DNA of 64,000 bases, taken from an uncultured Chloroflexia bacterium (GTDB lineage Bacteria > Chloroflexota > Dehalococcoidia > GIF9 > UBA5629). The stretch is taken from contig OY970123.1 of NCBI GenBank assembly GCA_963705905.1, positions 774,919 through 838,918 on the forward strand, in the 5' to 3' direction. The notes under the pieces were generated by a model. The model worked only from the letters and a program-made list of their open reading frames with translations, was not told the DNA's origin and did not search any database. The translations under genes were made by a program, and so were the position numbers. Numbering within the stretch: position 1 is the stretch's first letter; each line of letters opens with the position of its first letter. Below, piece after piece: positions 29,223 to 42,930 of the stretch.

Positions 29223-29378
29223 TATTTGTCAAGAGGGTTTGCGAAATCTCATGAAGTAGTATCCGGAACTGCTACAGGTAGACTCGTTTTTCACATCGGC
29301 CTTCCGCTGACATATAATATGTACATTTGAGCAAAACTATGAGCGACGAAGGGCAGAGCGCGGCAGGCAACTGAGATT

Positions 29379-30614
29379 TTGATCATGGCTCATGATGTAT
29401 TTATCAGCTACTCCAGCAAAGACAAGGTGATAGCCGACGCCGTCTGCGCCAGCCTGGAAGCGCGTAAAATTCGTTGCTGGATCGCACCCAGGGACGTTCT
29501 TCCCGGAGAAGTATATGCCGAAGCTCTCATCGAGAGTCTGAATGAGAGCCGCCTGATGGTGCTGGTCTTCTCCGCCAACTCCAATGAGTCGCCCCAGGTT
29601 ATTAGGGAAGTGGAGCGGGCCGTAAATAAGGGCATCCCCATTATCCCCTTCAGGATCGAGGACGTAATACCTTCCAAGTCTATGGAGTATTTTGTCAGCT
29701 CCTCCCACTGGCTGGACGCTATGACGCCGCCTTTGGAAAAACATTTGGAAAGGCTGGGTGATACGATCCAGTTGTTACTCGATAAGGGACATGAAGCCCT
29801 GCCGCCTACCGAGTTCCATCCACCCACGGCAGCCGCCGCGCAAAAAGCTGCAATTTCGAAAAAGTTGCTGCCGGTTTATATCGTGGGCGGATGCATGCTG
29901 CTGGTTATGGTGGTCGCAGGTACATTGTTCTTTACCGGGCGCCTGGGCAGGCGAACACCCACCGGCGGCTCAGAGCGTATCCCCCCGGTTTCCACCCCGG
30001 CATCACCCAATCCGGCCCCGGTGCAGCCGAATACGCCTAATTCAACCAGGCTGGCAGCGCCTGCCACCGGCCAGGGCTTTCAAGATGACTTCAGCAACGT
30101 AAACAGCGGCTGGACGAGGGTATCGGATGATATTAAGGATAGCGATTATGTAAATGGGCAATTCAGTCTGACGGTCAAGAAACCCGATACCAGGATCGTA
30201 ATAGTTAATAACAACGCCGGTATATATAAGGACATGTCACTGCAAACGGATGCCCGCCTCATGAGCGGGCCTGGCCAGACCCTGTATGGGCTGGTCTTCC
30301 GTCAGAAGGACCTCGACAATTATTATTGCTTCATGGTCACGGGCGACGGCGCCTATACGTTGCAGAAAAGGGTCGGCGGGTTCGTTACTATAATTATCAA
30401 GAAGACGGACTCGGTCAGCGTTAAAAAGGAAACCTCTTTCAATACGCTGGAAGTCATATGCAAAGGCGATCAGATTGAATTGCTGTGCAACGGCAGCCAC
30501 CTGGCAACTACTACGGACAATTCACTCAGTGAAGGCTGGGTAGGCATTGTAGTGAATACGGGAGCTCCACCCGCCAACTCCATATTCGATAACTTCAAAG
30601 TATCTCCGAACTAA
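29379..30614 (+). CDS. TIR-domain membrane protein: N-terminal cytoplasmic TIR, one TM helix, C-terminal LamG/DUF1080-like jelly-roll domain
   Basis: DVFISYSSKDK...WIAPRD...SANSNESPQVIREVERAV is the TIR fold with a conserved Glu. LLPVYIVGGCMLLVMVVAGTLFF is the TM segment. The C-terminal ~180 aa (GWVGIVVNTGAPP..., YGLVFRQKDLDNYY) is concanavalin-like. Confidence 0.75.
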   Translation: MIMAHDVFISYSSKDKVIADAVCASLEARKIRCWIAPRDVLPGEVYAEALIESLNESRLMVLVFSANSNESPQVIREVERAVNKGIPIIPFRIEDVIPSKSMEYFVSSSHWLDAMTPPLEKHLERLGDTIQLLLDKGHEALPPTEFHPPTAAAAQKAAISKKLLPVYIVGGCMLLVMVVAGTLFFTGRLGRRTPTGGSERIPPVSTPASPNPAPVQPNTPNSTRLAAPATGQGFQDDFSNVNSGWTRVSDDIKDSDYVNGQFSLTVKKPDTRIVIVNNNAGIYKDMSLQTDARLMSGPGQTLYGLVFRQKDLDNYYCFMVTGDGAYTLQKRVGGFVTIIIKKTDSVSVKKETSFNTLEVICKGDQIELLCNGSHLATTTDNSLSEGWVGIVVNTGAPPANSIFDNFKVSPN

Positions 30615-32458
30615 GCCCCTGAAGTTCGCCCTTTGCGGTATACGCGGTATCCCGCCCTGGACAGGAACTCGGGGATCGAGCGCACCGGGTCCCGGTCCTT
30701 ATCCTTCTCTTCCTTCGACAGGTCTTCCCATGGAATGAGGGTCGGGCTGATCTTCCCGACATCGTCCTTGACATCGCCGAGCTTCCAGCCCTTCCTCAAC
30801 CTTTCTTCGACAAAGCGCGTGTGCTCCAGCTTAGCCATTTCTTCAACATCCTCGTCGGAGAACTTGATAGGCTGCTGTTCCCACTCGGGCGACATGGCGA
30901 AATCATAGCCGAACTGCCTTAGCTTCGCAGCGATATTTTCAGCCTGGCTCCTGTTGGACTCCCTCAGGTTGGCCGGAAGCTGGTCCCAGGGCACCATAGA
31001 ACGGTTAGTCTCAGGAGCCTCTCCCCTTCTTACTGCATTACGCCTGTATTCATCATGAATAGCGCGTGCCAGTATCTCATTAGTAGAGCCGCCCCAGATC
31101 GACTCAGGTGTGCATGTCCTCTCGAGCAGCGGGAAGACGCACAGGTTACCCATGTTGTCCTGCCTATCGCCGCCGATGGAGATTAGGGCGGCCAGCCCCA
31201 TGTCCATATTCATCCTCACTATAACCGGCACACTGAGCTCGCCGATCTTCTTGTTCAGCATGAGGGCTGCGTTCAGCGCCTGCGATTCGTCGCCAGTACA
31301 CACGTAGATGATACTGGCCCGGCACCGGCCGTCCTTCTCAAAAAGGAAATCTCCGCGTTCGAATTCAGGGGAACTCATATCCATATCCAGCGCCGTAAGC
31401 TCACAGGCACTCTCAAGCTTGGGATACCTGAGGCTGAGCGACTGCTTCCGGCTGTTTGCCTTCAAGTCGACCATGGTGATGCGCAGGCGCTGCGCCCCGT
31501 CGCTGCGGGTGCCCCACCTGCGGGCGGCATTGACCACCAGGCTCTCCCCCATGCGGCCGATGCCGATCACTAATATGTGCGGCGTTTCTCCCTTCGCTCC
31601 AGGCAGGTCGAACGGGTATTCATACAGCAGCTCGCGTGCACCGCTTTCGTAGACGTTGAAGAAGCCCAGCCTGAAGGCGTCGATGATCCCCATGCGTATC
31701 TCGCGCTCCCTGAGGAAGCTCCAGAGCTGCAGGTCTACGATATGCGCCAGGCACGAAAGCGTCCTGGTAGTGTCCTCCGCCACCAGCTCGCGGGAGTAGA
31801 GGGCGACCTCGGCGTTGGTGCTGTCTTCCCCACACACCGAGATAACGCTCTTTGCAAAATGCACCCTGGCTTTGCGCAGGAGCTGAATATTGGCGGCCTT
31901 GCCCATCAGAACGATGACACCCTGGTCTTTGCAGTGCGTTATCATCGGGTTATTGGCGTCGCTTTCTATGACCACCACTCGCTCGCCCATCGCCCTGTAA
32001 CGGTCGGCAAGCAGCAGGCCCTTCTGCCCCAGCCCGCAGATGATGATATGGTCCTTCGTCATCCTCAACCTCAGCAGTTGGACCTGGTCGCGGAAGATGC
32101 TGATCAGGGCCTCGAAGGCTATGTAGAGTGCGGCTGCCGCCGCCAGTATCCTGGCTATCTGTAGTTCAACAGGTACCGTACCGGGAAGAGGGGTGGAGGC
32201 GGGGTTGAGCAGCCGCAGGGTGTAATAGAAATTGTCCCAGAAGGAGCTCGGCTGGCCGGCGGCCGCAAAATACTTGGCGTGTCCGATGAAGCCCAGCACC
32301 ATGGCGGCGGCCAGCATGAGGCCTGCAAGTGGCAGCCTGTAATCAACCACCCACTGCGTTATCTTCTCGATCAAAGGCGGCTTGGCTGCGGCGCCAGTTT
32401 TGAGCACTTTCCCCTTGTTTCCCGTTTGAGTGCCGTTGCTTTCCATCTTGTGGTCCAC
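30611..32458 (-). CDS. membrane protein with 2 TM helices and a degenerate pore-helix-like segment, two TrkA-N/RCK Rossmann domains and two C-terminal RyR (ryanodine-receptor) repeats
   Basis: TMs at ~40-60 and ~105-125 flank SFWDNFYYTLRLL. NAD-binding-type folds: IIICGLGQKGLLLADRYRAMGERVVVIESD and HILVIGIGRMGESLV. RyR repeats: ILARAIHDEYRRNAVRRGEAP...VPWDQLPANLRESNRSQAE and EEMAKLEHTRFVEERLRKGWKLGD...IPWEDLSKEEKDKDRD. Confidence 0.65.
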   Translation of the reverse strand: MDHKMESNGTQTGNKGKVLKTGAAAKPPLIEKITQWVVDYRLPLAGLMLAAAMVLGFIGHAKYFAAAGQPSSFWDNFYYTLRLLNPASTPLPGTVPVELQIARILAAAAALYIAFEALISIFRDQVQLLRLRMTKDHIIICGLGQKGLLLADRYRAMGERVVVIESDANNPMITHCKDQGVIVLMGKAANIQLLRKARVHFAKSVISVCGEDSTNAEVALYSRELVAEDTTRTLSCLAHIVDLQLWSFLREREIRMGIIDAFRLGFFNVYESGARELLYEYPFDLPGAKGETPHILVIGIGRMGESLVVNAARRWGTRSDGAQRLRITMVDLKANSRKQSLSLRYPKLESACELTALDMDMSSPEFERGDFLFEKDGRCRASIIYVCTGDESQALNAALMLNKKIGELSVPVIVRMNMDMGLAALISIGGDRQDNMGNLCVFPLLERTCTPESIWGGSTNEILARAIHDEYRRNAVRRGEAPETNRSMVPWDQLPANLRESNRSQAENIAAKLRQFGYDFAMSPEWEQQPIKFSDEDVEEMAKLEHTRFVEERLRKGWKLGDVKDDVGKISPTLIPWEDLSKEEKDKDRDPVRSIPEFLSRAGYRVYRKGRTSGA

Positions 32459-32760: not shown

Positions 32761-32781
32761 CACTCGAGGGTATTCTGCCTG

Positions 32782-32814
32782 AAAAGCCGGGCCCGCAGAC
32801 GCCCGGCTTTTTTC
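32782..32814. terminator. bidirectional intrinsic terminator
   Basis: gaaaa-gccgggc-ccgcagac-gcccggc-tttttt, between the DUF5679 gene (+) and the SDR gene (-). Confidence 0.6.
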
Positions 32815-37488: not shown

Positions 37489-37938
37489 ATGATTCGACAA
37501 TTTGTTGCTGAGAACGCAAGGGAACGGGAAAGACTCCGCAACCTCGTAAATAAAATAACTGATGAGGAGTTAATGCTTACTCTTAATATCGAAGGGTGGA
37601 CGGTTGCGGCAGCCTTAGCACATTTAGCATTCTGGGATGATCGACGGCTGGTCCTTGTCCGGAAATGGAAGACACAGGGCATTACAACGTCGCCTATTGA
37701 TGCAGATATTACTAATGATGCGCTGGTCCGATTATTATTGGCAATCCCCCCAAGAAAAGCAGCCAACCTGTCAATACTCGCGTCTGAAGCACTCGATAAG
37801 GAATTGGAAGAAGCCTCTCCCGATCTGATAGCGGCAATCGAGGCCCTGGGAGATAGTCATGCTTTAAACCGGTCCATACACCGTAAGATGCATCTAGATG
37901 AAATTGAAGCCTTACTGAGAACTAAAGGTTCACGGTGA
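37489..37938 (+). CDS. DinB/YfiT-like four-helix-bundle protein (candidate thiol-dependent transferase family)
   Basis: EGWTVAAALAHLAFWD resembles the DinB_2 first-helix GWT..HL motif. His residues recur in later helices (IHRKMHLDE). aggaggt RBS. Confidence 0.45.
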   Translation: MIRQFVAENARERERLRNLVNKITDEELMLTLNIEGWTVAAALAHLAFWDDRRLVLVRKWKTQGITTSPIDADITNDALVRLLLAIPPRKAANLSILASEALDKELEEASPDLIAAIEALGDSHALNRSIHRKMHLDEIEALLRTKGSR

Positions 37939-39867
37939 CAGGTCCTGATTCAGCGGACCCGGCAAGGGCTCTGGCGTTGGGTTGGGCACGGGGCCGGGCA
38001 TCGGTTCAGGCGTGGGATTGGGCACAGGTCCGGGCATCGGTTCCGGCGTTGGGTTGGGCACCGGTCCCGGCATGGGCTCCGGGGTAGGATTGGGCACAGG
38101 CCCAGGCATCGGTCCCGGTGTGGGATTAGGTACGGGGCCGGGCATAGGGCCGGGTCCCGGCAAACTTGTGAACATCAGCGTGAACTCAAGGGAACCGCCG
38201 GGTGAAAGATACTGCGATGAAGGCGACACTCCGGCGAATTCTGCGTTCCAGGGTCCTCCGTCACGGAAATCGACGCTGTACGTCCCCTGCGGGGCTCCGT
38301 CAAAGGTTTGCGCTACGGTATTGCCGGTTTGGACATACGGCCCATGCAGCACGTAGTTTGCAGACCCGTACCAGGACTGTCCGTTCAGCGTTGCATCCAC
38401 CGTAACATATCCCCTGCTCTCCGCGGTGAAGTTCAGGATATATGCAATAGAGCCGCCCGCAGAAAGGTATTGCGTAGGCGACGGCGAGATTCCCGTCAAC
38501 GTAGCACCCACCGGGCCGCCCGAGTCATACACCAGGGTATAGTTCCCGGTGGGGTAACCGGTCAGCCAGCCCGGGATCGTATCCTCGCTATCAATCAGGC
38601 TGCCGTTGCTCAGGGAATAGCTTATAGGGCCTGAGCCCGGATTCGTCACCCACGGCTGGCCGTCCACCCTGGCATAGATAGTGATGTTGCCTGTGTCCTG
38701 CTTGCTGGCAAAGTTCAGGCTGAATACGATGGTGCGCCCGGCGGCCAGCGACTGCGTGGGCGCCAATGTGATGCCGGTCAGGTTAGCATTGGAAGGCCCC
38801 CCTCCCAGGTAAGTTACTGTGTAAACCCCTGTCGGCACACTGGAATAGGTGCGGGGCACCGAGTAGTCGACGTTCAGGAAAGGGTTGCTCAGGGAGAAGC
38901 TGGTCGAGCCGGACCACGGTGACCCGTCCAACGTGGCCTGCACTATGACGTTGCCGGACTGCGACTGTGTGTAGTAGGTAAATGTAAATTCGGCTGCCCT
39001 TCCTCCACTGATTACCAGGGTCGTATCCGGGATTATGCCTCCCAGCGAGGCGCCCGCCGGCCCGCCCGCTTTATAGCTGATACGGTAGGTGCCATCGGGG
39101 ACATTGGGCAGCTTTAGCGGCACAGACGCATAAGACCCTGAAATCGGCCCTGATATGGAATAGCTGACCGGGCCCGTCCAGGAGCCGCTGTTGAAATAGG
39201 CGGTAACCGACAAACTTGAAGCGGACGGCGCCGATGAAAAATTCAAGGTAAAGTCCACCTGACCGTTGGACGTCAGCGTTTGCGAGGCCGAGGGGGAAAC
39301 GCCCGTGAACACTGCATTCTGGGGCCCGCCGTCGTTGTATACCACGGTATACATTCCGGGGTCAACGCTTATGAATGTATGCGGCACGATGGAATCCCTG
39401 TCCTGAAAGTGGCCGTAGATAGTGTAGTCTATGCCACCGTTCCAGGGGGTGCCGTCCAGCATGGCGCTCACGTTTATCCTGGAGTTGCCGGGGGTCTGGA
39501 AGTTGAGCGTAAAGGAGACCGTGCCGCCGGCGCTGAGCTGCTGGGCCGGCGCCGGGGTTACATCGGCCAGTGCTGCCCCCGACGGCCCGCCGTAGTTGTA
39601 GGTGATGGAATACACGCCGGCTTTGACCCCATTGAAACTCCACGGCAGGTTATCTTCGGTATCGGTGAAGGGGCCGTTGACCTGGTAGCTAACGGGTCCC
39701 GCCCATCTTGCGCCATTATATGTGGCATTCACGTAGATGTTGCCCGTAGTTAGCGAGGGTATGGGAGGGCTGGGAGGCTTGGAACACCCCGCAAAAACCA
39801 GCACTAAAATTAAAGCAACTAATAGAACGCAGTATGCTTTCCGTATCATGGCCTTTTCCCTCTCCAA
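37930..39867 (-). CDS. surface lipoprotein with about seven tandem ~90-aa beta-sandwich repeats and a C-terminal Pro-rich tail
   Basis: Lipobox LVFAGC. Repeats share the pattern W.GP..Y...GP.......P..F..V..G.Y...Y..GGP..A.L....P...Q.L..GG...FTLNF. The tail is (PMPGPVPNPTPE)x5. Confidence 0.6.
   Translation of the reverse strand: MEREKAMIRKAYCVLLVALILVLVFAGCSKPPSPPIPSLTTGNIYVNATYNGARWAGPVSYQVNGPFTDTEDNLPWSFNGVKAGVYSITYNYGGPSGAALADVTPAPAQQLSAGGTVSFTLNFQTPGNSRINVSAMLDGTPWNGGIDYTIYGHFQDRDSIVPHTFISVDPGMYTVVYNDGGPQNAVFTGVSPSASQTLTSNGQVDFTLNFSSAPSASSLSVTAYFNSGSWTGPVSYSISGPISGSYASVPLKLPNVPDGTYRISYKAGGPAGASLGGIIPDTTLVISGGRAAEFTFTYYTQSQSGNVIVQATLDGSPWSGSTSFSLSNPFLNVDYSVPRTYSSVPTGVYTVTYLGGGPSNANLTGITLAPTQSLAAGRTIVFSLNFASKQDTGNITIYARVDGQPWVTNPGSGPISYSLSNGSLIDSEDTIPGWLTGYPTGNYTLVYDSGGPVGATLTGISPSPTQYLSAGGSIAYILNFTAESRGYVTVDATLNGQSWYGSANYVLHGPYVQTGNTVAQTFDGAPQGTYSVDFRDGGPWNAEFAGVSPSSQYLSPGGSLEFTLMFTSLPGPGPMPGPVPNPTPGPMPGPVPNPTPEPMPGPVPNPTPEPMPGPVPNPTPEPMPGPVPNPTPEPLPGPLNQDLSP
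37966..38160 (-). repeat. 36-nt in-frame tandem repeat (x5) encoding PMPGPVPNPTPE
   Basis: Near-identical 36-bp units (ggcacnggnccgggcatnggntcnggngtnggattg), visible as period-12 amino-acid repeats. Confidence 0.7.
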
Positions 39868-39937: not shown

Positions 39938-41023
39938 TCAGTTTCTCTGAGTGTTGACCGTATCCTTGTAAACCAATTTCAATGAAGGCAGTAGTGCTTG
40001 CTCTTCGAGAGATATAGCATCGCTTTTCCAGATTAATCTTTTTCGCATGGAAACATTGTCAGAATTATATTTAGGCATACAGGAGAAGACCTTATTTCCG
40101 ATACAACTACCTATCACACCAAAAATTAGAATCAATGTCAACGTTACAATAATCGTCCATTTATTCGAGCGGAATGATTTGAACTTAATAAAAATACATA
40201 GACTGCTGGGGTCGGTTTCTGACCAACGATAAGCTATGACTCTATGGAACGGATATTCTGTCCCTACATATGATGTCCAAATATGGCTTTCTAATTGCCT
40301 ACCGGCAGGTAGACTATGAGAAAAAATATAATCATCTTTGGCTTCTCTCATTAAGAAGAAATGTGATATTTTAAATGAGGTTTTTACCTCACCACGAATA
40401 AGCTCAAGCAAGGAAGCCGGTAAATTGCGTTTTTCGTTAACTCGAAAATCAACCAACTCAGTCTGTAGAAATGCCCCCTCCAGCATTGAATTAAGGGGGG
40501 GCTTATAAATATAGTTAATTTGTTTTACAAAATCACATTTTAGTCTAATGCGATAATAGTGTTTTTTATTTTTTAAATATTCAGGAACCTTTATGGAAAT
40601 TGTGGAACCACCGAATTGATTTAATATGGTTACATCATTCTCAATATCCAATTGATATATACTAAATAAGAATGTTCTATCCGCTCTACATATATCAATT
40701 GTTTTTTCTTGCGATCCACTAGAAACAATATAATCTGCGTTGAAAATGGCAGATACAAGTTCGGTTGAACTCCGAAATAGTGATCCCAAATCAGTCAAAT
40801 TAGATTCACTCAATTTGGCAGGTAAATAAATATTGATGGTATCCATTGGAGGGCTATTTCCCAATACCATCAAACCTATATCTAAAAAACAATTTACGCT
40901 TGAGTCGCCCAATAACCAGTAATTAAAGTGGCATTCCAAATTATAAGTATTGGCGGTTTCTTGCCCGACCTTTTGCCCCGTACACCAAATGGCAATACAG
41001 TTTACCGTTTTTCCCCTAATCAT
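39938..41023 (-). CDS. hypothetical protein with C-terminal transmembrane anchor (island gene 3)
   Basis: 361 aa with no recognisable domain. One predicted TM helix, WTIIVTLTLILIFGVIGSCIG, lies near the C-terminus. Confidence 0.5.
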   Translation of the reverse strand: MIRGKTVNCIAIWCTGQKVGQETANTYNLECHFNYWLLGDSSVNCFLDIGLMVLGNSPPMDTINIYLPAKLSESNLTDLGSLFRSSTELVSAIFNADYIVSSGSQEKTIDICRADRTFLFSIYQLDIENDVTILNQFGGSTISIKVPEYLKNKKHYYRIRLKCDFVKQINYIYKPPLNSMLEGAFLQTELVDFRVNEKRNLPASLLELIRGEVKTSFKISHFFLMREAKDDYIFSHSLPAGRQLESHIWTSYVGTEYPFHRVIAYRWSETDPSSLCIFIKFKSFRSNKWTIIVTLTLILIFGVIGSCIGNKVFSCMPKYNSDNVSMRKRLIWKSDAISLEEQALLPSLKLVYKDTVNTQRN

Positions 41024-41063
41024 TACTTTAACAACAATCCTTAATTCTAACTTGCTAATTTAT

Positions 41064-41432
41064 TTAGATATAGATGAATGATTGTGGAGGCCAAGAGAGC
41101 ATAAATTCATTGAGGGTATATGGTATTTCATAGCGTTTTGTTTCCCTAATCTTAATAGCATATCCAGTCTCGCGCTCTGCGAAATAACTAAAAAACTTTT
41201 TTTTAGTTATTCCAGCATGTTGGCCAGTTTTATACCAAAGAATATCAGGATGAGCCTGAAGAATCGTCCCTATCTGAAATTCGCCGATTATTCGTTTAAC
41301 AGGGTTAGACGCATATATGACCACTGTCGCCACTTCCTGTCGTTTGAAAATGGCCCTTCTATATTCATATTTTTTCGATCCTTCAAATATTTTAGTAGCA
41401 TATTCTGGTTTAATTGACAGCAATACTTTCAT
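41064..41432 (-). CDS. ASCH domain protein (island gene 2)
   Basis: MKVLLSIKPEYATKIFEGSKKYEYRRA carries the ASCH GxKxxExR signature (G-S-K-K-Y-E-Y-R) in a beta-barrel PUA-like context. Its start overlaps the 3' end of the upstream gene by 23 nt. Confidence 0.7.
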   Translation of the reverse strand: MKVLLSIKPEYATKIFEGSKKYEYRRAIFKRQEVATVVIYASNPVKRIIGEFQIGTILQAHPDILWYKTGQHAGITKKKFFSYFAERETGYAIKIRETKRYEIPYTLNEFMLSWPPQSFIYI

Positions 41433-42930
41433 CAGCCTGGCACTCCTTTAATATATCCTTTAGGTTTGGTACAGTTATTTGAGTGAAGCCCCTAGGGACG
41501 TCATTAGTGCTGGGTATAACGCCGATTTCGATAAGTTTCTGTAAATTAATCCTCTTAGGCAAAGAATACACATATAGAAAGTTGACAATAAATGGTCGAT
41601 ATAACGATCTTTTCCATTCCTGCGAAAGCGATCCGTTTGAAAAGACGCTACGTTTAGCTGCCAATTCAATAAAGTCGTTTTCGTCCTTAATATTAGTAAT
41701 AACATTCTCAACTACGCCTATTGTCGTAACAACACTATGATAATATGCTGGATATGCGTCGGCTGTACGATAAAAAACAATCACGTCACCCGAGCTTAAT
41801 CCTCTCTCCATGGATCTTGAAATGAAAACTTTACTAATTGCATTTCTATAAGGTTCATTTTCCACATAATCAGCGGGCGATTCTGTCTGCAGTATAGAAT
41901 CCGGGAATAATTCAGTGTGATATTTAGGATAGATGGATACAATAAAAATTCGTCCCCTTACTGAAAAGAAAGGATACGTTAATTTTGGACTTGACCGATC
42001 AGCCTTTTTTTCACATGACCTCACATATACAAGTTCCTTTCCTCCTAAGCCTACCTTTACACCATGATAGCGGAAGCCATAATCCTCCAATAGATTAATT
42101 AGCCGTTGCTGTTCAATTCGCTTATCAAAAATTGATACATATATTTCCTCAACTTTGAAAAGTAGGGCATTATCAAACACAATTTTTAGAAATCTTTCAC
42201 CTAAACGATATCCGTTCAATACGACTTTAAAACTCCCGATTTTAAGGCGTTTTTTGGGCAATAATGGGGGATTAATGTCAGAATATATCTCGTTTTTATC
42301 CTCAACCTTCAAATAAAGCAAGGCGATTAACTTATTCTCCGACAAACAAATGTAGACTGGTTCGTCAGCCTTCTTGTTAAACCACTCGGTATACTCAGGA
42401 TAATCTTCAATAAAGGAATTAAAAAAATCATCTGATAGTTTTAAGTTTCCGAAATATGACTTCCGTACCGAAAGAACCTTATAATCGGTTAAATTGGGAT
42501 GTTCCTTTGTGACTTTTTCAAGGAACGAATCTATCGTATAGACTTTATCGGCTACATTAAGTATTGAAGCTTTATTAATGATCTTTTTATCTTCAGTTAT
42601 TAATATATCGACACGTCCGGCAAATAGTTCATTAATAATAATTGTGTCGTTGACATCATTTTCATTTTTATCTAGTGGTCCTATGAGTGAATAAACGCTA
42701 TCCTTAATAGGAGCGGTTGTTTTAAGTATATTGTAATTCCTTAATTTAACTTCAAAAGTCTTCCGCACCTCGGGGTCCTGATGTTTTTCTATCTCCTCGA
42801 TAGTTAAATGGTGTATACATTTAGAATAATGAAGATTATCGAGCCACTTGAACAATACTCCAATGTCTTCATTAACCACCGTAGCGGCTTCACGATGAAT
42901 AATGATATTAGTGTCCAGGAGTACCTTCAC
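41410..42930 (-). CDS. multidomain protein: N-terminal PIN-like nuclease domain, central GNAT-like segment, C-terminal EVE/PUA-like domain (island gene 1)
   Basis: GTG start. MKVLLDTNIIIHRE plus downstream acidic residues (NDVNDTIIINE, LITEDKK) fit PIN. The C-terminus, GDVIVFYRTADAYPAYYHSVVTTIGVV, resembles the EVE GDxVxFYHS...G motif. Confidence 0.55.
   Translation of the reverse strand: MKVLLDTNIIIHREAATVVNEDIGVLFKWLDNLHYSKCIHHLTIEEIEKHQDPEVRKTFEVKLRNYNILKTTAPIKDSVYSLIGPLDKNENDVNDTIIINELFAGRVDILITEDKKIINKASILNVADKVYTIDSFLEKVTKEHPNLTDYKVLSVRKSYFGNLKLSDDFFNSFIEDYPEYTEWFNKKADEPVYICLSENKLIALLYLKVEDKNEIYSDINPPLLPKKRLKIGSFKVVLNGYRLGERFLKIVFDNALLFKVEEIYVSIFDKRIEQQRLINLLEDYGFRYHGVKVGLGGKELVYVRSCEKKADRSSPKLTYPFFSVRGRIFIVSIYPKYHTELFPDSILQTESPADYVENEPYRNAISKVFISRSMERGLSSGDVIVFYRTADAYPAYYHSVVTTIGVVENVITNIKDENDFIELAAKRSVFSNGSLSQEWKRSLYRPFIVNFLYVYSLPKRINLQKLIEIGVIPSTNDVPRGFTQITVPNLKDILKECQADESIAVN

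Follow-up and report, generated by a model that had tools for sequence, protein, structure and literature searches.

A convergent pair of genes for a TIR membrane protein and an RyR-repeat channel-like protein in a Dehalococcoidia genome: a candidate NAD-derived signalling module

In a 64-kb stretch of the genome of an uncultured Chloroflexia bacterium of the Dehalococcoidia (contig OY970123.1, positions 774,919 to 838,918; the window, compared below with relatives numbered as L loci), two convergent genes encode a membrane-anchored TIR protein with a lectin-like ectodomain and a channel-like protein that ends in two ryanodine receptor (RyR) repeats. Our favoured reading, which we consider somewhat probable and far from certain, is that the pair is a Thoeris-like second-messenger module distributed over two convergent transcription units, in which the TIR protein would make an NAD+-derived signal, the RyR repeats would sense it and the channel-like protein would be the effector. 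What we establish directly are the domain architectures, an adjacency that is both conserved and rearranged among relatives, a modular association of TIR with RyR proteins, and the conservation of catalytic and pocket residues. We found no paper describing a TIR-RyR circuit of host genes, and the pair is probably an NAD-derived signalling or immune module that has not been described before.

The two genes and their junction are located as follows.

29385..30614, plus strand: gene for the TIR-transmembrane-lectin protein, 409 residues, ATG start (open reading frame listing; NCBI MGA9048057.1, 'TIR domain-containing protein')
30611..32446, minus strand: gene for the partner, in which two transmembrane helices are followed by tandem RCK domains and a pair of RyR repeats, 611 residues, ATG start (NCBI MGA9048056.1, 'NAD-binding protein')
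30611..30614, both strands: stop codons of the two convergent genes, which overlap in CTAA (TAA read on the plus strand, TAG on the minus strand)

Both open reading frames lie where the original prediction had placed them, and the 4-nt overlap of their 3′ ends that it described is correct. The frame lister had extended them to 29379-30614 (plus strand, TTG start at 29379) and 30611-32458 (minus strand, GTG start at 32458); we set the starts to 29385 and 32446 because database orthologues begin at these internal ATGs. The pair contains the only TIR and RyR genes in the window.

The TIR protein divides into five features.

29385..29786, plus strand: cytoplasmic TIR domain, residues 1-134 (Pfam TIR_2; alpha/beta fold in the model)
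29607-29609, plus strand: codon of the candidate catalytic glutamate E75, in 409-residue numbering (motif QVIRE75VER)
29868..29933, plus strand: single transmembrane helix, residues 162-183 (sole hydrophobic segment by hydropathy; helix in the model)
29937..30065, plus strand: Pro-rich, disordered extracytoplasmic linker, residues 185-227 (sequence; model confidence, pLDDT, below 50)
30078..30608, plus strand: extracytoplasmic concanavalin-like beta-sandwich, CBM66/DUF1080-like, residues 232-408 (pLDDT above 90; Foldseek)

The predicted succession of a TIR domain, one transmembrane helix and a concanavalin-like C-terminal domain was borne out by Pfam, by hydropathy, by an AlphaFold2 model built from 37 homologues (mean pLDDT 78.7) and by Foldseek. 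TIR_2 (PF13676) is matched at residues 7-115 with E = 5.9e-21 and 75.6 bits, against a gathering cut-off of 28, and we place the TIR domain in the cytoplasm and the sandwich outside because the protein has no signal peptide and a single transmembrane helix. The glutamate expected at the catalytic position is indeed conserved: E75 is invariant across the 37 full-length homologues and aligns with the conserved alphaC glutamate of the IL-18RAP TIR domain, and from its motif we take it to be the counterpart of the catalytic glutamate of plant and SARM1 TIR domains. Mean identity to the window protein is 77% over the TIR domain and 43% over the ectodomain, which shows the TIR domain to be far more constrained. 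A TIR-domain sequence search of the PDB gave weak matches only (best E = 1e-4, to TIR-STING) and is uninformative on the product made.

For the ectodomain the concanavalin-like fold stands, whereas its assignment as DUF1080-type is borderline. The best solved match of the sandwich is the CBM66 structure 4b1m (TM-score 0.80, root-mean-square deviation 2.7 Å), followed by DUF1080-type 'putative glycosyl hydrolases' (3u1x), the lectin domain of galactocerebrosidase and galectins; DUF1080 itself (3keto-disac_hyd, PF06439) scores 26.0 bits in the window protein, just under its cut-off of 26.8, and is assigned to many orthologues in precomputed Pfam annotation. The topology had also been thought unusual for a bacterial TIR protein, and this did not hold, since 102 of the 120 best homologues share the receptor-like layout of an N-terminal TIR domain, one transmembrane helix and an ectodomain of more than 100 residues. 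Ectodomains of these homologues are annotated as PPC, WD40, TPR, LRR, FGE-sulfatase or DUF1080. The TIR_2 subfamily as a whole is large (6,546 matches at E ≤ 1e-3 among 8,000 candidates), and with its diverse ectodomains it resembles a receptor repertoire in Chloroflexota-rich metagenomes.

The partner is, according to a monomer model predicted from 101 homologues (mean pLDDT 84), channel-like in architecture.

32060..32338, minus strand: pore-like membrane module, with transmembrane helix 1 at residues 37-63, a short re-entrant helix at 69-78, a loop at 79-92 lacking GYG, and transmembrane helix 2 at 93-129 (model; full-length fold matches to GsuK and MthK; P-loop composition)
31592..32047, minus strand: RCK domain 1, residues ~134-285, with GLGQKG and Glu161 (Pfam TrkA_N, 2.9e-16; motif ~100% conserved)
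31112..31579, minus strand: RCK domain 2, residues ~290-445, with GIGRMG and Asp327 (model; tandem-RCK matches to GsuK and TrkA; no Pfam call)
30872..31084, minus strand: RyR repeat 1, residues ~455-525, pocket positions H464, Y467, N481 and N498 (alignments to RyR repeats; model; fold matches; conservation)
30635..30856, minus strand: RyR repeat 2, residues 531-604, pocket positions H542, F545, S567 and D584 (Pfam RyR, 1.4e-14; alignments to RyR repeats and to PDB 35tm)

All three architectural claims made for this protein survived. Two transmembrane helices flanking a degenerate pore helix without a TVGYG filter are seen in the model and in the P-loop alignment of the 101 homologues, and the second is modelled as a long helix that continues directly into the first Rossmann domain. 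Two TrkA-N/RCK Rossmann domains are supported by the model and by their motifs, GxGxxG and the acidic residue being kept in both in 97-100% of the homologues; Pfam calls the first alone. The two RyR repeats are supported by the model and by alignment of the C-terminal 169 residues to RyR structures, with E = 6e-19 to a Bt-hRyR Repeat12 chimera and ~1e-16 to RyR2. In the 615-residue numbering of the longer frame, Pfam reports one TrkA_N domain (residues 138-228) and one RyR stretch (PF02026, residues 538-606; 54.5 bits against a gathering cut-off of 27.4), and it does not detect Ion_trans_2. The top Foldseek match is GsuK (~510 aligned columns, E = 4e-11), including its NAD- and ADP-bound forms, followed by TrkA, full-length MthK, and RyR Repeat12 structures that include human RyR3 Repeat12 with ADP, ATP or dantrolene. 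The partner thus resembles GsuK, MthK and TrkA in its pair of transmembrane helices, re-entrant helix, inner helix and tandem RCK domains with intact GxGxxG and acidic residues; it differs from GsuK and MthK in lacking a TVGYG-type filter, in carrying an additional C-terminal RyR tandem, and in having only 15-18% sequence identity to them. GYG is absent from the P-loop of the window protein and of all 101 homologues, whose consensus is TLQLFxLESGxVSGP in the family and TLRLLNPASTPLPGT in the window clade, and a canonical K+-selective channel is ruled out because a GYG-type filter is missing. The family comprises 2,083 representatives at 50% identity (E ≤ 1e-30), annotated 'NAD-binding protein', 'Kch' or 'hypothetical'. 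A scan of viral contigs found no relatives, and a phage or prophage origin of the RyR protein is unsupported.

Two preprints from 2026, which treat phage proteins alone, provide a direct comparison for the RyR repeats (PMC13232231; 10.64898/2026.06.04.730250). The phage protein RyDEP (mycobacteriophage DyoEdafos gp78), a member of PF02026, acts on 2′cADPR and 3′cADPR (isomers of cyclic ADP-ribose, cADPR) as a glycosidase, through a pocket formed by H75, W78, H100 and D117, and has been shown in experiments to bind these isomers and cADPR itself; other phage PF02026 proteins bind cADPR-type signals at nanomolar affinity, and the homologues of RyDEP are sponges (PMC13232231). RyR Tad (Pectobacterium phage CB1 gp68) binds 3′cADPR (Kd 43 nM), 2′cADPR and canonical cADPR (10.64898/2026.06.04.730250). 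To place these residues, a Gordonia phage homologue was aligned to the 139-residue chain of PDB 35tm, and the homologue and the window protein were aligned to the same RyR1 repeat columns. Between the homologue and 35tm the offset is +9 (H66/W69/H91/D108 to H75/W78/H100/D117), and 35tm is probably RyDEP, as this offset reproduces the RyDEP numbering. The equivalences, with conservation among the 101 family members, are these.

RyDEP H75: H542 in repeat 2 (100/101 conserved); H464 in repeat 1 (101/101)
RyDEP W78: F545 in repeat 2 (F, W or Y in 100/101); Y467 in repeat 1 (100/101)
RyDEP H100: S567 in repeat 2 (variable: S, N or H); N481 in repeat 1 (91/101)
RyDEP D117: D584 in repeat 2 (98/101); N498 in repeat 1 (93/101)

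In each repeat three of the four positions are 91-100% conserved, and a conserved arginine directly follows the last. Judged from these alignments, the ligand pocket is largely preserved apart from the phosphate-binding histidine. The window protein shares with RyDEP and RyR Tad the PF02026 family and, in these alignments, a conserved pocket histidine, aromatic residue and aspartate (plus Lys/Arg); the phage proteins are small, soluble, dimeric anti-defence sponges or a glycosidase, whereas here the repeats form an intramolecular tandem at the C terminus of a TIR-linked host membrane protein. This tandem would be a signal receiver rather than an inhibitor because it sits on a host membrane protein tied to a TIR gene, and the signal is likely sensed by the RyR repeat pair, either in place of the RCK domains or alongside them.

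The same pocket invites an alternative in which the two genes are linked and their roles differ: the TIR protein would be the effector, through NAD+ depletion, or a non-enzymatic scaffold, and the RyR protein a regulator whose repeat 2 hydrolyses or buffers a cADPR-type signal to reset or dampen the response; or the channel would act upstream of TIR. Repeat 2 retains the His/Asp dyad that RyDEP uses in catalysis, H542 (99% conserved) and D584 (97%) being the equivalents of H75 and D117, and the precedent of a glycosidase with sponge homologues points the same way, as do stand-alone RyR domains beside TIR genes and the NUDIX and SLOG-like genes that are frequent companions and possible signal-turnover enzymes. 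However, most tested RyDEP homologues retain the dyad residues and merely bind ligand (PMC13232231), and it is difficult to see why a hydrolase or sponge would be joined to a complete two-helix RCK scaffold if the pore were not under the control of ligand binding. In a December 2025 survey of TIR systems, moreover, the non-TIR partner is the effector in Thoeris generally (10.64898/2025.12.03.692087). A signal-degrading or buffering role of the RyR domain is plausible; we judge the reassignment of roles as a whole to be unlikely.

The functional link between the two proteins had been offered originally as an inference from a single locus, and a comparison across genomes supports it computationally, together with the invariant glutamate and the GsuK-like architecture. 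Every close relative of the RyR protein examined (≥59% identity; L001-L008, L075, L084/85, L092-94) has a TIR-TM-lectin gene tail-to-tail at its 3′ side, the TIR gene being truncated or split in L004 and the RyR-protein gene split into two open reading frames in L075. Gaps in the convergent pairs range from about -15 to +48 nt, and L084 and L085 share the 4-nt overlap of the window. The flanking genes RecN and SDR are common to the window locus and L004-L007, whereas the pair travels as a unit, since its flanks in L001, L002, L008 and L075 are unrelated. In L090 and L095 the pair is divergent across a 181-nt spacer, with a TIR protein 46% identical to that of the window, and in a metagenome scan all four full-length TIR-TM-lectin relatives were paired. 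One unpaired paralogue, in a metagenome-assembled genome (MAG) that also has a paired copy, converges on a gene for a 282-residue protein without a Pfam match (L088:6001-8209; L089:396-2628); this protein carries a PD-(D/E)xK-like motif (EIDIIAF...LAIEVKN) and may be an alternative effector.

At greater distance (35-50% identity) we took one genome per species. The 80 loci obtained belong to Chloroflexota, Bacteroidota, Ignavibacteriota, Deltaproteobacteria, Gemmatimonadota, Planctomycetota, Acidobacteria and a Methanoperedens archaeon, and in 72 of them the gene was called cleanly. A TIR gene of the subfamily lies within 6 kb in 23 of the 72, co-directional downstream, convergent or upstream. 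An unbiased Pfam scan returned TIR_2 as the commonest family among the 70 immediately downstream genes (12/70), the conserved adjacency that had been called for as a check. With a custom TIR hidden Markov model the frequency was 10/70 (14.3%) at the first downstream position, 2/66 at the first upstream position, 12/210 two or three genes away and 3/174 (1.7%) at least four genes away, and the first downstream position differs from the last class with an odds ratio of 9.5 (Fisher's test, P = 3e-4). This slot-specific test of decay with distance is stronger than a within-locus test, and the qualitative evidence, namely the several orientations, differing flanks and several phyla, is a stronger argument than the statistics.

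We picture the module as follows. The 409-residue protein would be a type-II-like membrane receptor, whose extracytoplasmic lectin- or CBM-like sandwich would sense an external or envelope cue and, presumably through clustering, activate the cytoplasmic TIR domain. With its conserved glutamate, that domain would make from NAD+ a signal derived from ADP-ribose, either a cADPR isomer or a related molecule, as expected from the family. The C-terminal RyR tandem of the partner would then read the signal: phage homologues show that the fold binds such ligands, and the near-invariant pocket residues suggest that the window protein may do so too. The signal, perhaps aided by NAD(H) or adenine nucleotides bound in both RCK Rossmann domains, would gate a tetrameric GsuK/MthK-like pore without a K+ filter, with ion flux or membrane depolarisation as the putative outcome. 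The activity and product of the TIR domain, ligand binding by the RyR tandem of the window, ion conduction and the biological role are what we infer. That role might be defence of the abortive-infection type or else a physiological reaction to a cue from outside, and the evidence favours neither; we leave a non-defence role open because the surroundings are housekeeping genes, inheritance appears vertical in a Dehalococcoidia clade, and no relatives were found on viral contigs. Possible, and in our opinion doubtful, is a broader proposition: that the RyR module is an ancient receiver of TIR-made cyclic-ADP-ribose-type signals, here gating a cation channel; that the outside-in path from lectin receptor through TIR and messenger to RyR channel prefigures both Toll-like receptor topology and the control of RyR by cADPR; and that the locus defines a large family of RyR effectors in TIR signalling, spread over several phyla (~2,000 clusters at 50% identity) and as yet unrecognised.

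A number of observations weigh against the module proposed here. The pair is convergent and not operonic, its flanks are housekeeping genes (RecN, SDR, Fe-ADH), and no defence-island context surrounds it. Among the 72 distant loci, 49 lack a TIR gene within 6 kb and in 19 no companion could be recognised; the census statistics take loci as independent, though several paired loci share ancestry, and the within-locus test, comparing either adjacent slot with a random position, is only moderately significant (P ~0.014). The TIR-TM-lectin paralogues P0135 and P0138 are unpaired, the MAG of the latter also carrying a paired copy. At the level of the proteins, the P-loop has no K+ filter, is modelled with moderate confidence (pLDDT ~63) and is not the same in the window clade as in the other family members; the position of the phosphate-binding H100 of RyDEP holds asparagine in repeat 1 and varies in repeat 2; and plain ATP and ADP are ligands of RyR3 Repeat12 as well, so that the ligand need not be TIR-derived. 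PADLOC, which has no model for the partner, returned no match for it, weak ThsB/TIR matches for the TIR protein (E from 3e-4 to 6e-8) and no system-level match.

Part of this evidence would also fit two functionally unrelated genes, one for an ordinary cation channel that serves ion homeostasis under NAD(H)/ATP regulation and one for an independent TIR surface receptor, brought together by inherited synteny in a TIR-rich lineage. The convergent orientation, the housekeeping flanks, the synteny common to the window and L004-L007, the very large TIR subfamily and the majority of RyR-protein loci without TIR all speak for such an account, and so do two pattern matches that suggest a separate transcription unit for each gene.

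29290..29318, plus strand: promoter-like site, TTCACA-17-TATAAT, 67 nt 5′ of the TIR start codon (consensus match only)
32781..32812, strand not assigned: 12-bp GC-rich hairpin in the spacer that separates the RyR-protein gene from the SDR gene upstream of it, with A- and T-runs on its two sides that make it resemble a bidirectional terminator (pattern match only)

The promoter and terminator scan of the region gave counts not above shuffled controls, the positions of these two sites alone being suggestive. In related loci a DUF5679 open reading frame of 46 residues is annotated in the spacer between the SDR and RyR-protein genes (L084:9225-9365). The account of unrelated neighbours does not sit well with a pair that persists amid wholly different flanks and in divergent orientation, with TIR as the top immediately downstream neighbour across phyla and its decay with distance, or with the pairing of TIR genes with non-channel RyR proteins and the single TIR gene in the 64 kb of the window. 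Mere synteny is unlikely, and we give this explanation as a whole little credence.

Beyond TIR, 53 of the 72 distant loci hold at least one companion gene of a nucleotide-signalling or conflict type. These include DUF4062-NACHT-WD40/TPR giants (19 loci) and SLOG-SLATT proteins with two transmembrane helices; DUF4062 was considered as a TIR-like domain and rejected, hhalign giving a probability of 0.2 against a TIR alignment, and the STAND giants are therefore not counted as TIR partners. A protein of ~190 residues, tentatively SLOG-like by its sequence, is encoded directly upstream of the gene for the channel-type RyR protein in 17 of the 72 (L042:5330-5977, plus strand; L029, L030, L055, L056, L069, L073, L083 and others) and is fused to the RyR protein in L082:5386-7668. 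It has the motifs GVTGHR..AEGADR..WDG..GGT; a profile search of the PDB was empty, and its Pfam matches are sub-threshold and fall in the SLOG clan (YAcAr, YpsA, cpYpsA, DNA_processg_A). STAND/AAA-RyR proteins of ~700-900 residues are encoded two genes upstream of the channel-type RyR gene, with the SLOG-like gene between (L042:2635-5325, plus strand; L029, L030, L041, L055, L073, L083); the example checked has a weak nSTAND_NTPase5 match and a strong C-terminal RyR match. Eight loci (including L023:10777-13703, plus strand, and L034, L035, L051, L062 and L068) encode a RelA/SpoT-TPR-SLOG(LSDAT_prok)-RyR protein of ~830 residues with a small adjacent NUDIX gene, a cluster that joins TRPM-type SLOG and NUDIX with an RyR domain in one bacterial gene cluster.

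TIR genes also stand beside RyR proteins of other kinds. TIR-Sel1 genes adjoin genes for RyR-TPR_S-adenylate/guanylate-cyclase proteins, convergently in L132:2-3838 and divergently in L153:1491-5239, a pairing of TIR and RyR that involves no channel; a PPC-TIR gene lies next to a stand-alone RyR domain of 96 residues (L135:2339-4420; Pfam E = 5e-36), which by analogy with phage RyDEP and RyR Tad could be a host signal buffer or degrader; and plain TIR genes lie downstream of distant TrkA_N-RyR proteins in L154 and L170. In three or four Gemmatimonadota MAGs (L059, L061, L062, L063) the neighbours of the RyR-protein gene follow a conserved order: a TIR gene (L059, L061, L063), a DUF6572-like gene (L059, L063), the RyR-protein gene, and genes for a gamma-glutamyltranspeptidase and a Zn-dependent dehydrogenase (L061-L063). 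One family of signal enzymes and one small domain fused to many outputs is, by analogy, the sensor-domain signature of Thoeris, CBASS and type III CRISPR systems.

A second RyR-domain protein is encoded in 23 of the 72 loci, adjoining the channel-type one, and this raises the idea that RyR repeats are homotypic adaptors joining STAND-RyR, RelA/SpoT-SLOG-RyR and channel-RyR proteins in a conflict complex, of which TIR would be merely a frequent island member. Multi-protein conflict systems typically include STAND NTPases that have adaptor domains in common. Single bacterial or phage RyR domains, for their part, dimerise in a way that mimics the tandem repeat (PMC13232231; 10.64898/2026.06.04.730250). 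Against adaptors of this kind, the window protein has an intramolecular repeat pair and needs no partner, its locus has no other RyR-domain gene, and the conserved residues are those of the ligand pocket, beyond the interface helices. A homotypic-adaptor role is possible in the large multi-RyR islands and unnecessary in the window; as an explanation of the pair studied here it appears to us highly improbable.

Compared with known TIR systems, the signalling module that we favour is closest to Thoeris. The December 2025 survey distinguishes 29 putative types of Thoeris, among them type X, a validated type with an ion channel, and its types II, V, VII and X are precedents for TIR with a membrane or ion-channel effector; RyR, PF02026, TrkA and PF02254 are not mentioned in its text or in the supplementary material searched (10.64898/2025.12.03.692087). 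NCBIfam returned far-sub-threshold TIR matches and no system-level match, and literature searches on prokaryotic RyR together with SMODS, SLATT, NUDIX or TIR, or on host-side RyR and Thoeris, found nothing beyond the two phage preprints. As in Thoeris, especially type II (TIR with the Macro-2TM protein ThsC), type VII (SLATT) and type X (TIR with ThsK), a TIR protein with a catalytic glutamate adjoins a protein that combines a nucleotide-binding sensor with a membrane module, and as there, one sensor domain recurs with a variety of effectors. In contrast to Thoeris, the sensor here is an RyR Repeat12-like tandem and the effector a GsuK-like channel with two transmembrane helices and two RCK domains, the TIR protein is itself a receptor in the membrane, with its lectin-like domain outside the cytoplasm, and the genes are convergent or divergent, form no operon and lie in no defence island. 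Among TIR second-messenger systems, the pair is set apart by its putative RyR-repeat sensor, its GsuK-like channel effector and its transmembrane TIR receptor with a lectin-like ectodomain.

The eukaryotic parallels are more distant. Like Repeat12 of eukaryotic RyR, the tandem described here is attached to a cation-channel-type protein, and it matches Repeat12 significantly in sequence and fold; unlike the eukaryotic receptor, a giant with six transmembrane helices, the core here is a two-helix RCK channel, and direct binding of cADPR by eukaryotic Repeat12 itself is unproven. With Toll-like receptors the TIR protein shares, as an analogy of topology only, a single transmembrane helix that separates a ligand-binding domain outside the cell from a TIR domain in the cytoplasm; its order is inverted, with the TIR domain at the N terminus inside and the ectodomain at the C terminus outside, its ectodomain is a lectin-like sandwich and not an LRR domain, and in contrast to the TIR domain of Toll-like receptors its own probably acts enzymatically.

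The phage preprints leave the role of the many host-encoded bacterial RyR proteins unaddressed, and this locus and its relatives offer a testable answer: a bacterial RyR domain that is linked genetically to TIR enzymes and occurs in fusions with a channel scaffold, with cyclases, and with STAND or SLOG proteins. If confirmed, the pair would add a new class of effector and sensor to TIR (Thoeris-like) signalling, and it would provide a tractable prokaryotic model, as a two-gene bacterial system, of the long-debated link between cADPR and the ryanodine receptor. It would also be a case, in a cell-wall-less Dehalococcoidia lineage, of a TIR protein that works as a genuine transmembrane receptor and senses the outside through a lectin-like domain, and it would supply a functional annotation for ~2,000 clusters whose present labels are 'NAD-binding protein', 'Kch' or 'hypothetical'.

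Two further features of the window lie apart from the pair. A low-GC stretch at 39938-42930 on the minus strand (0.36-0.42, against ~0.52 elsewhere) encodes a 361-residue protein without a Pfam match, a 122-residue ASCH-domain protein and a 506-residue protein with a weak N-terminal PIN_3 match, and is probably a horizontally acquired islet. At 37930-39867, also on the minus strand, a 645-residue protein with an N-terminal hydrophobic segment, repeated Ig-like or CopC-like modules and a terminal perfect (PMPGPVPNPTPE)n repeat is probably a surface protein.

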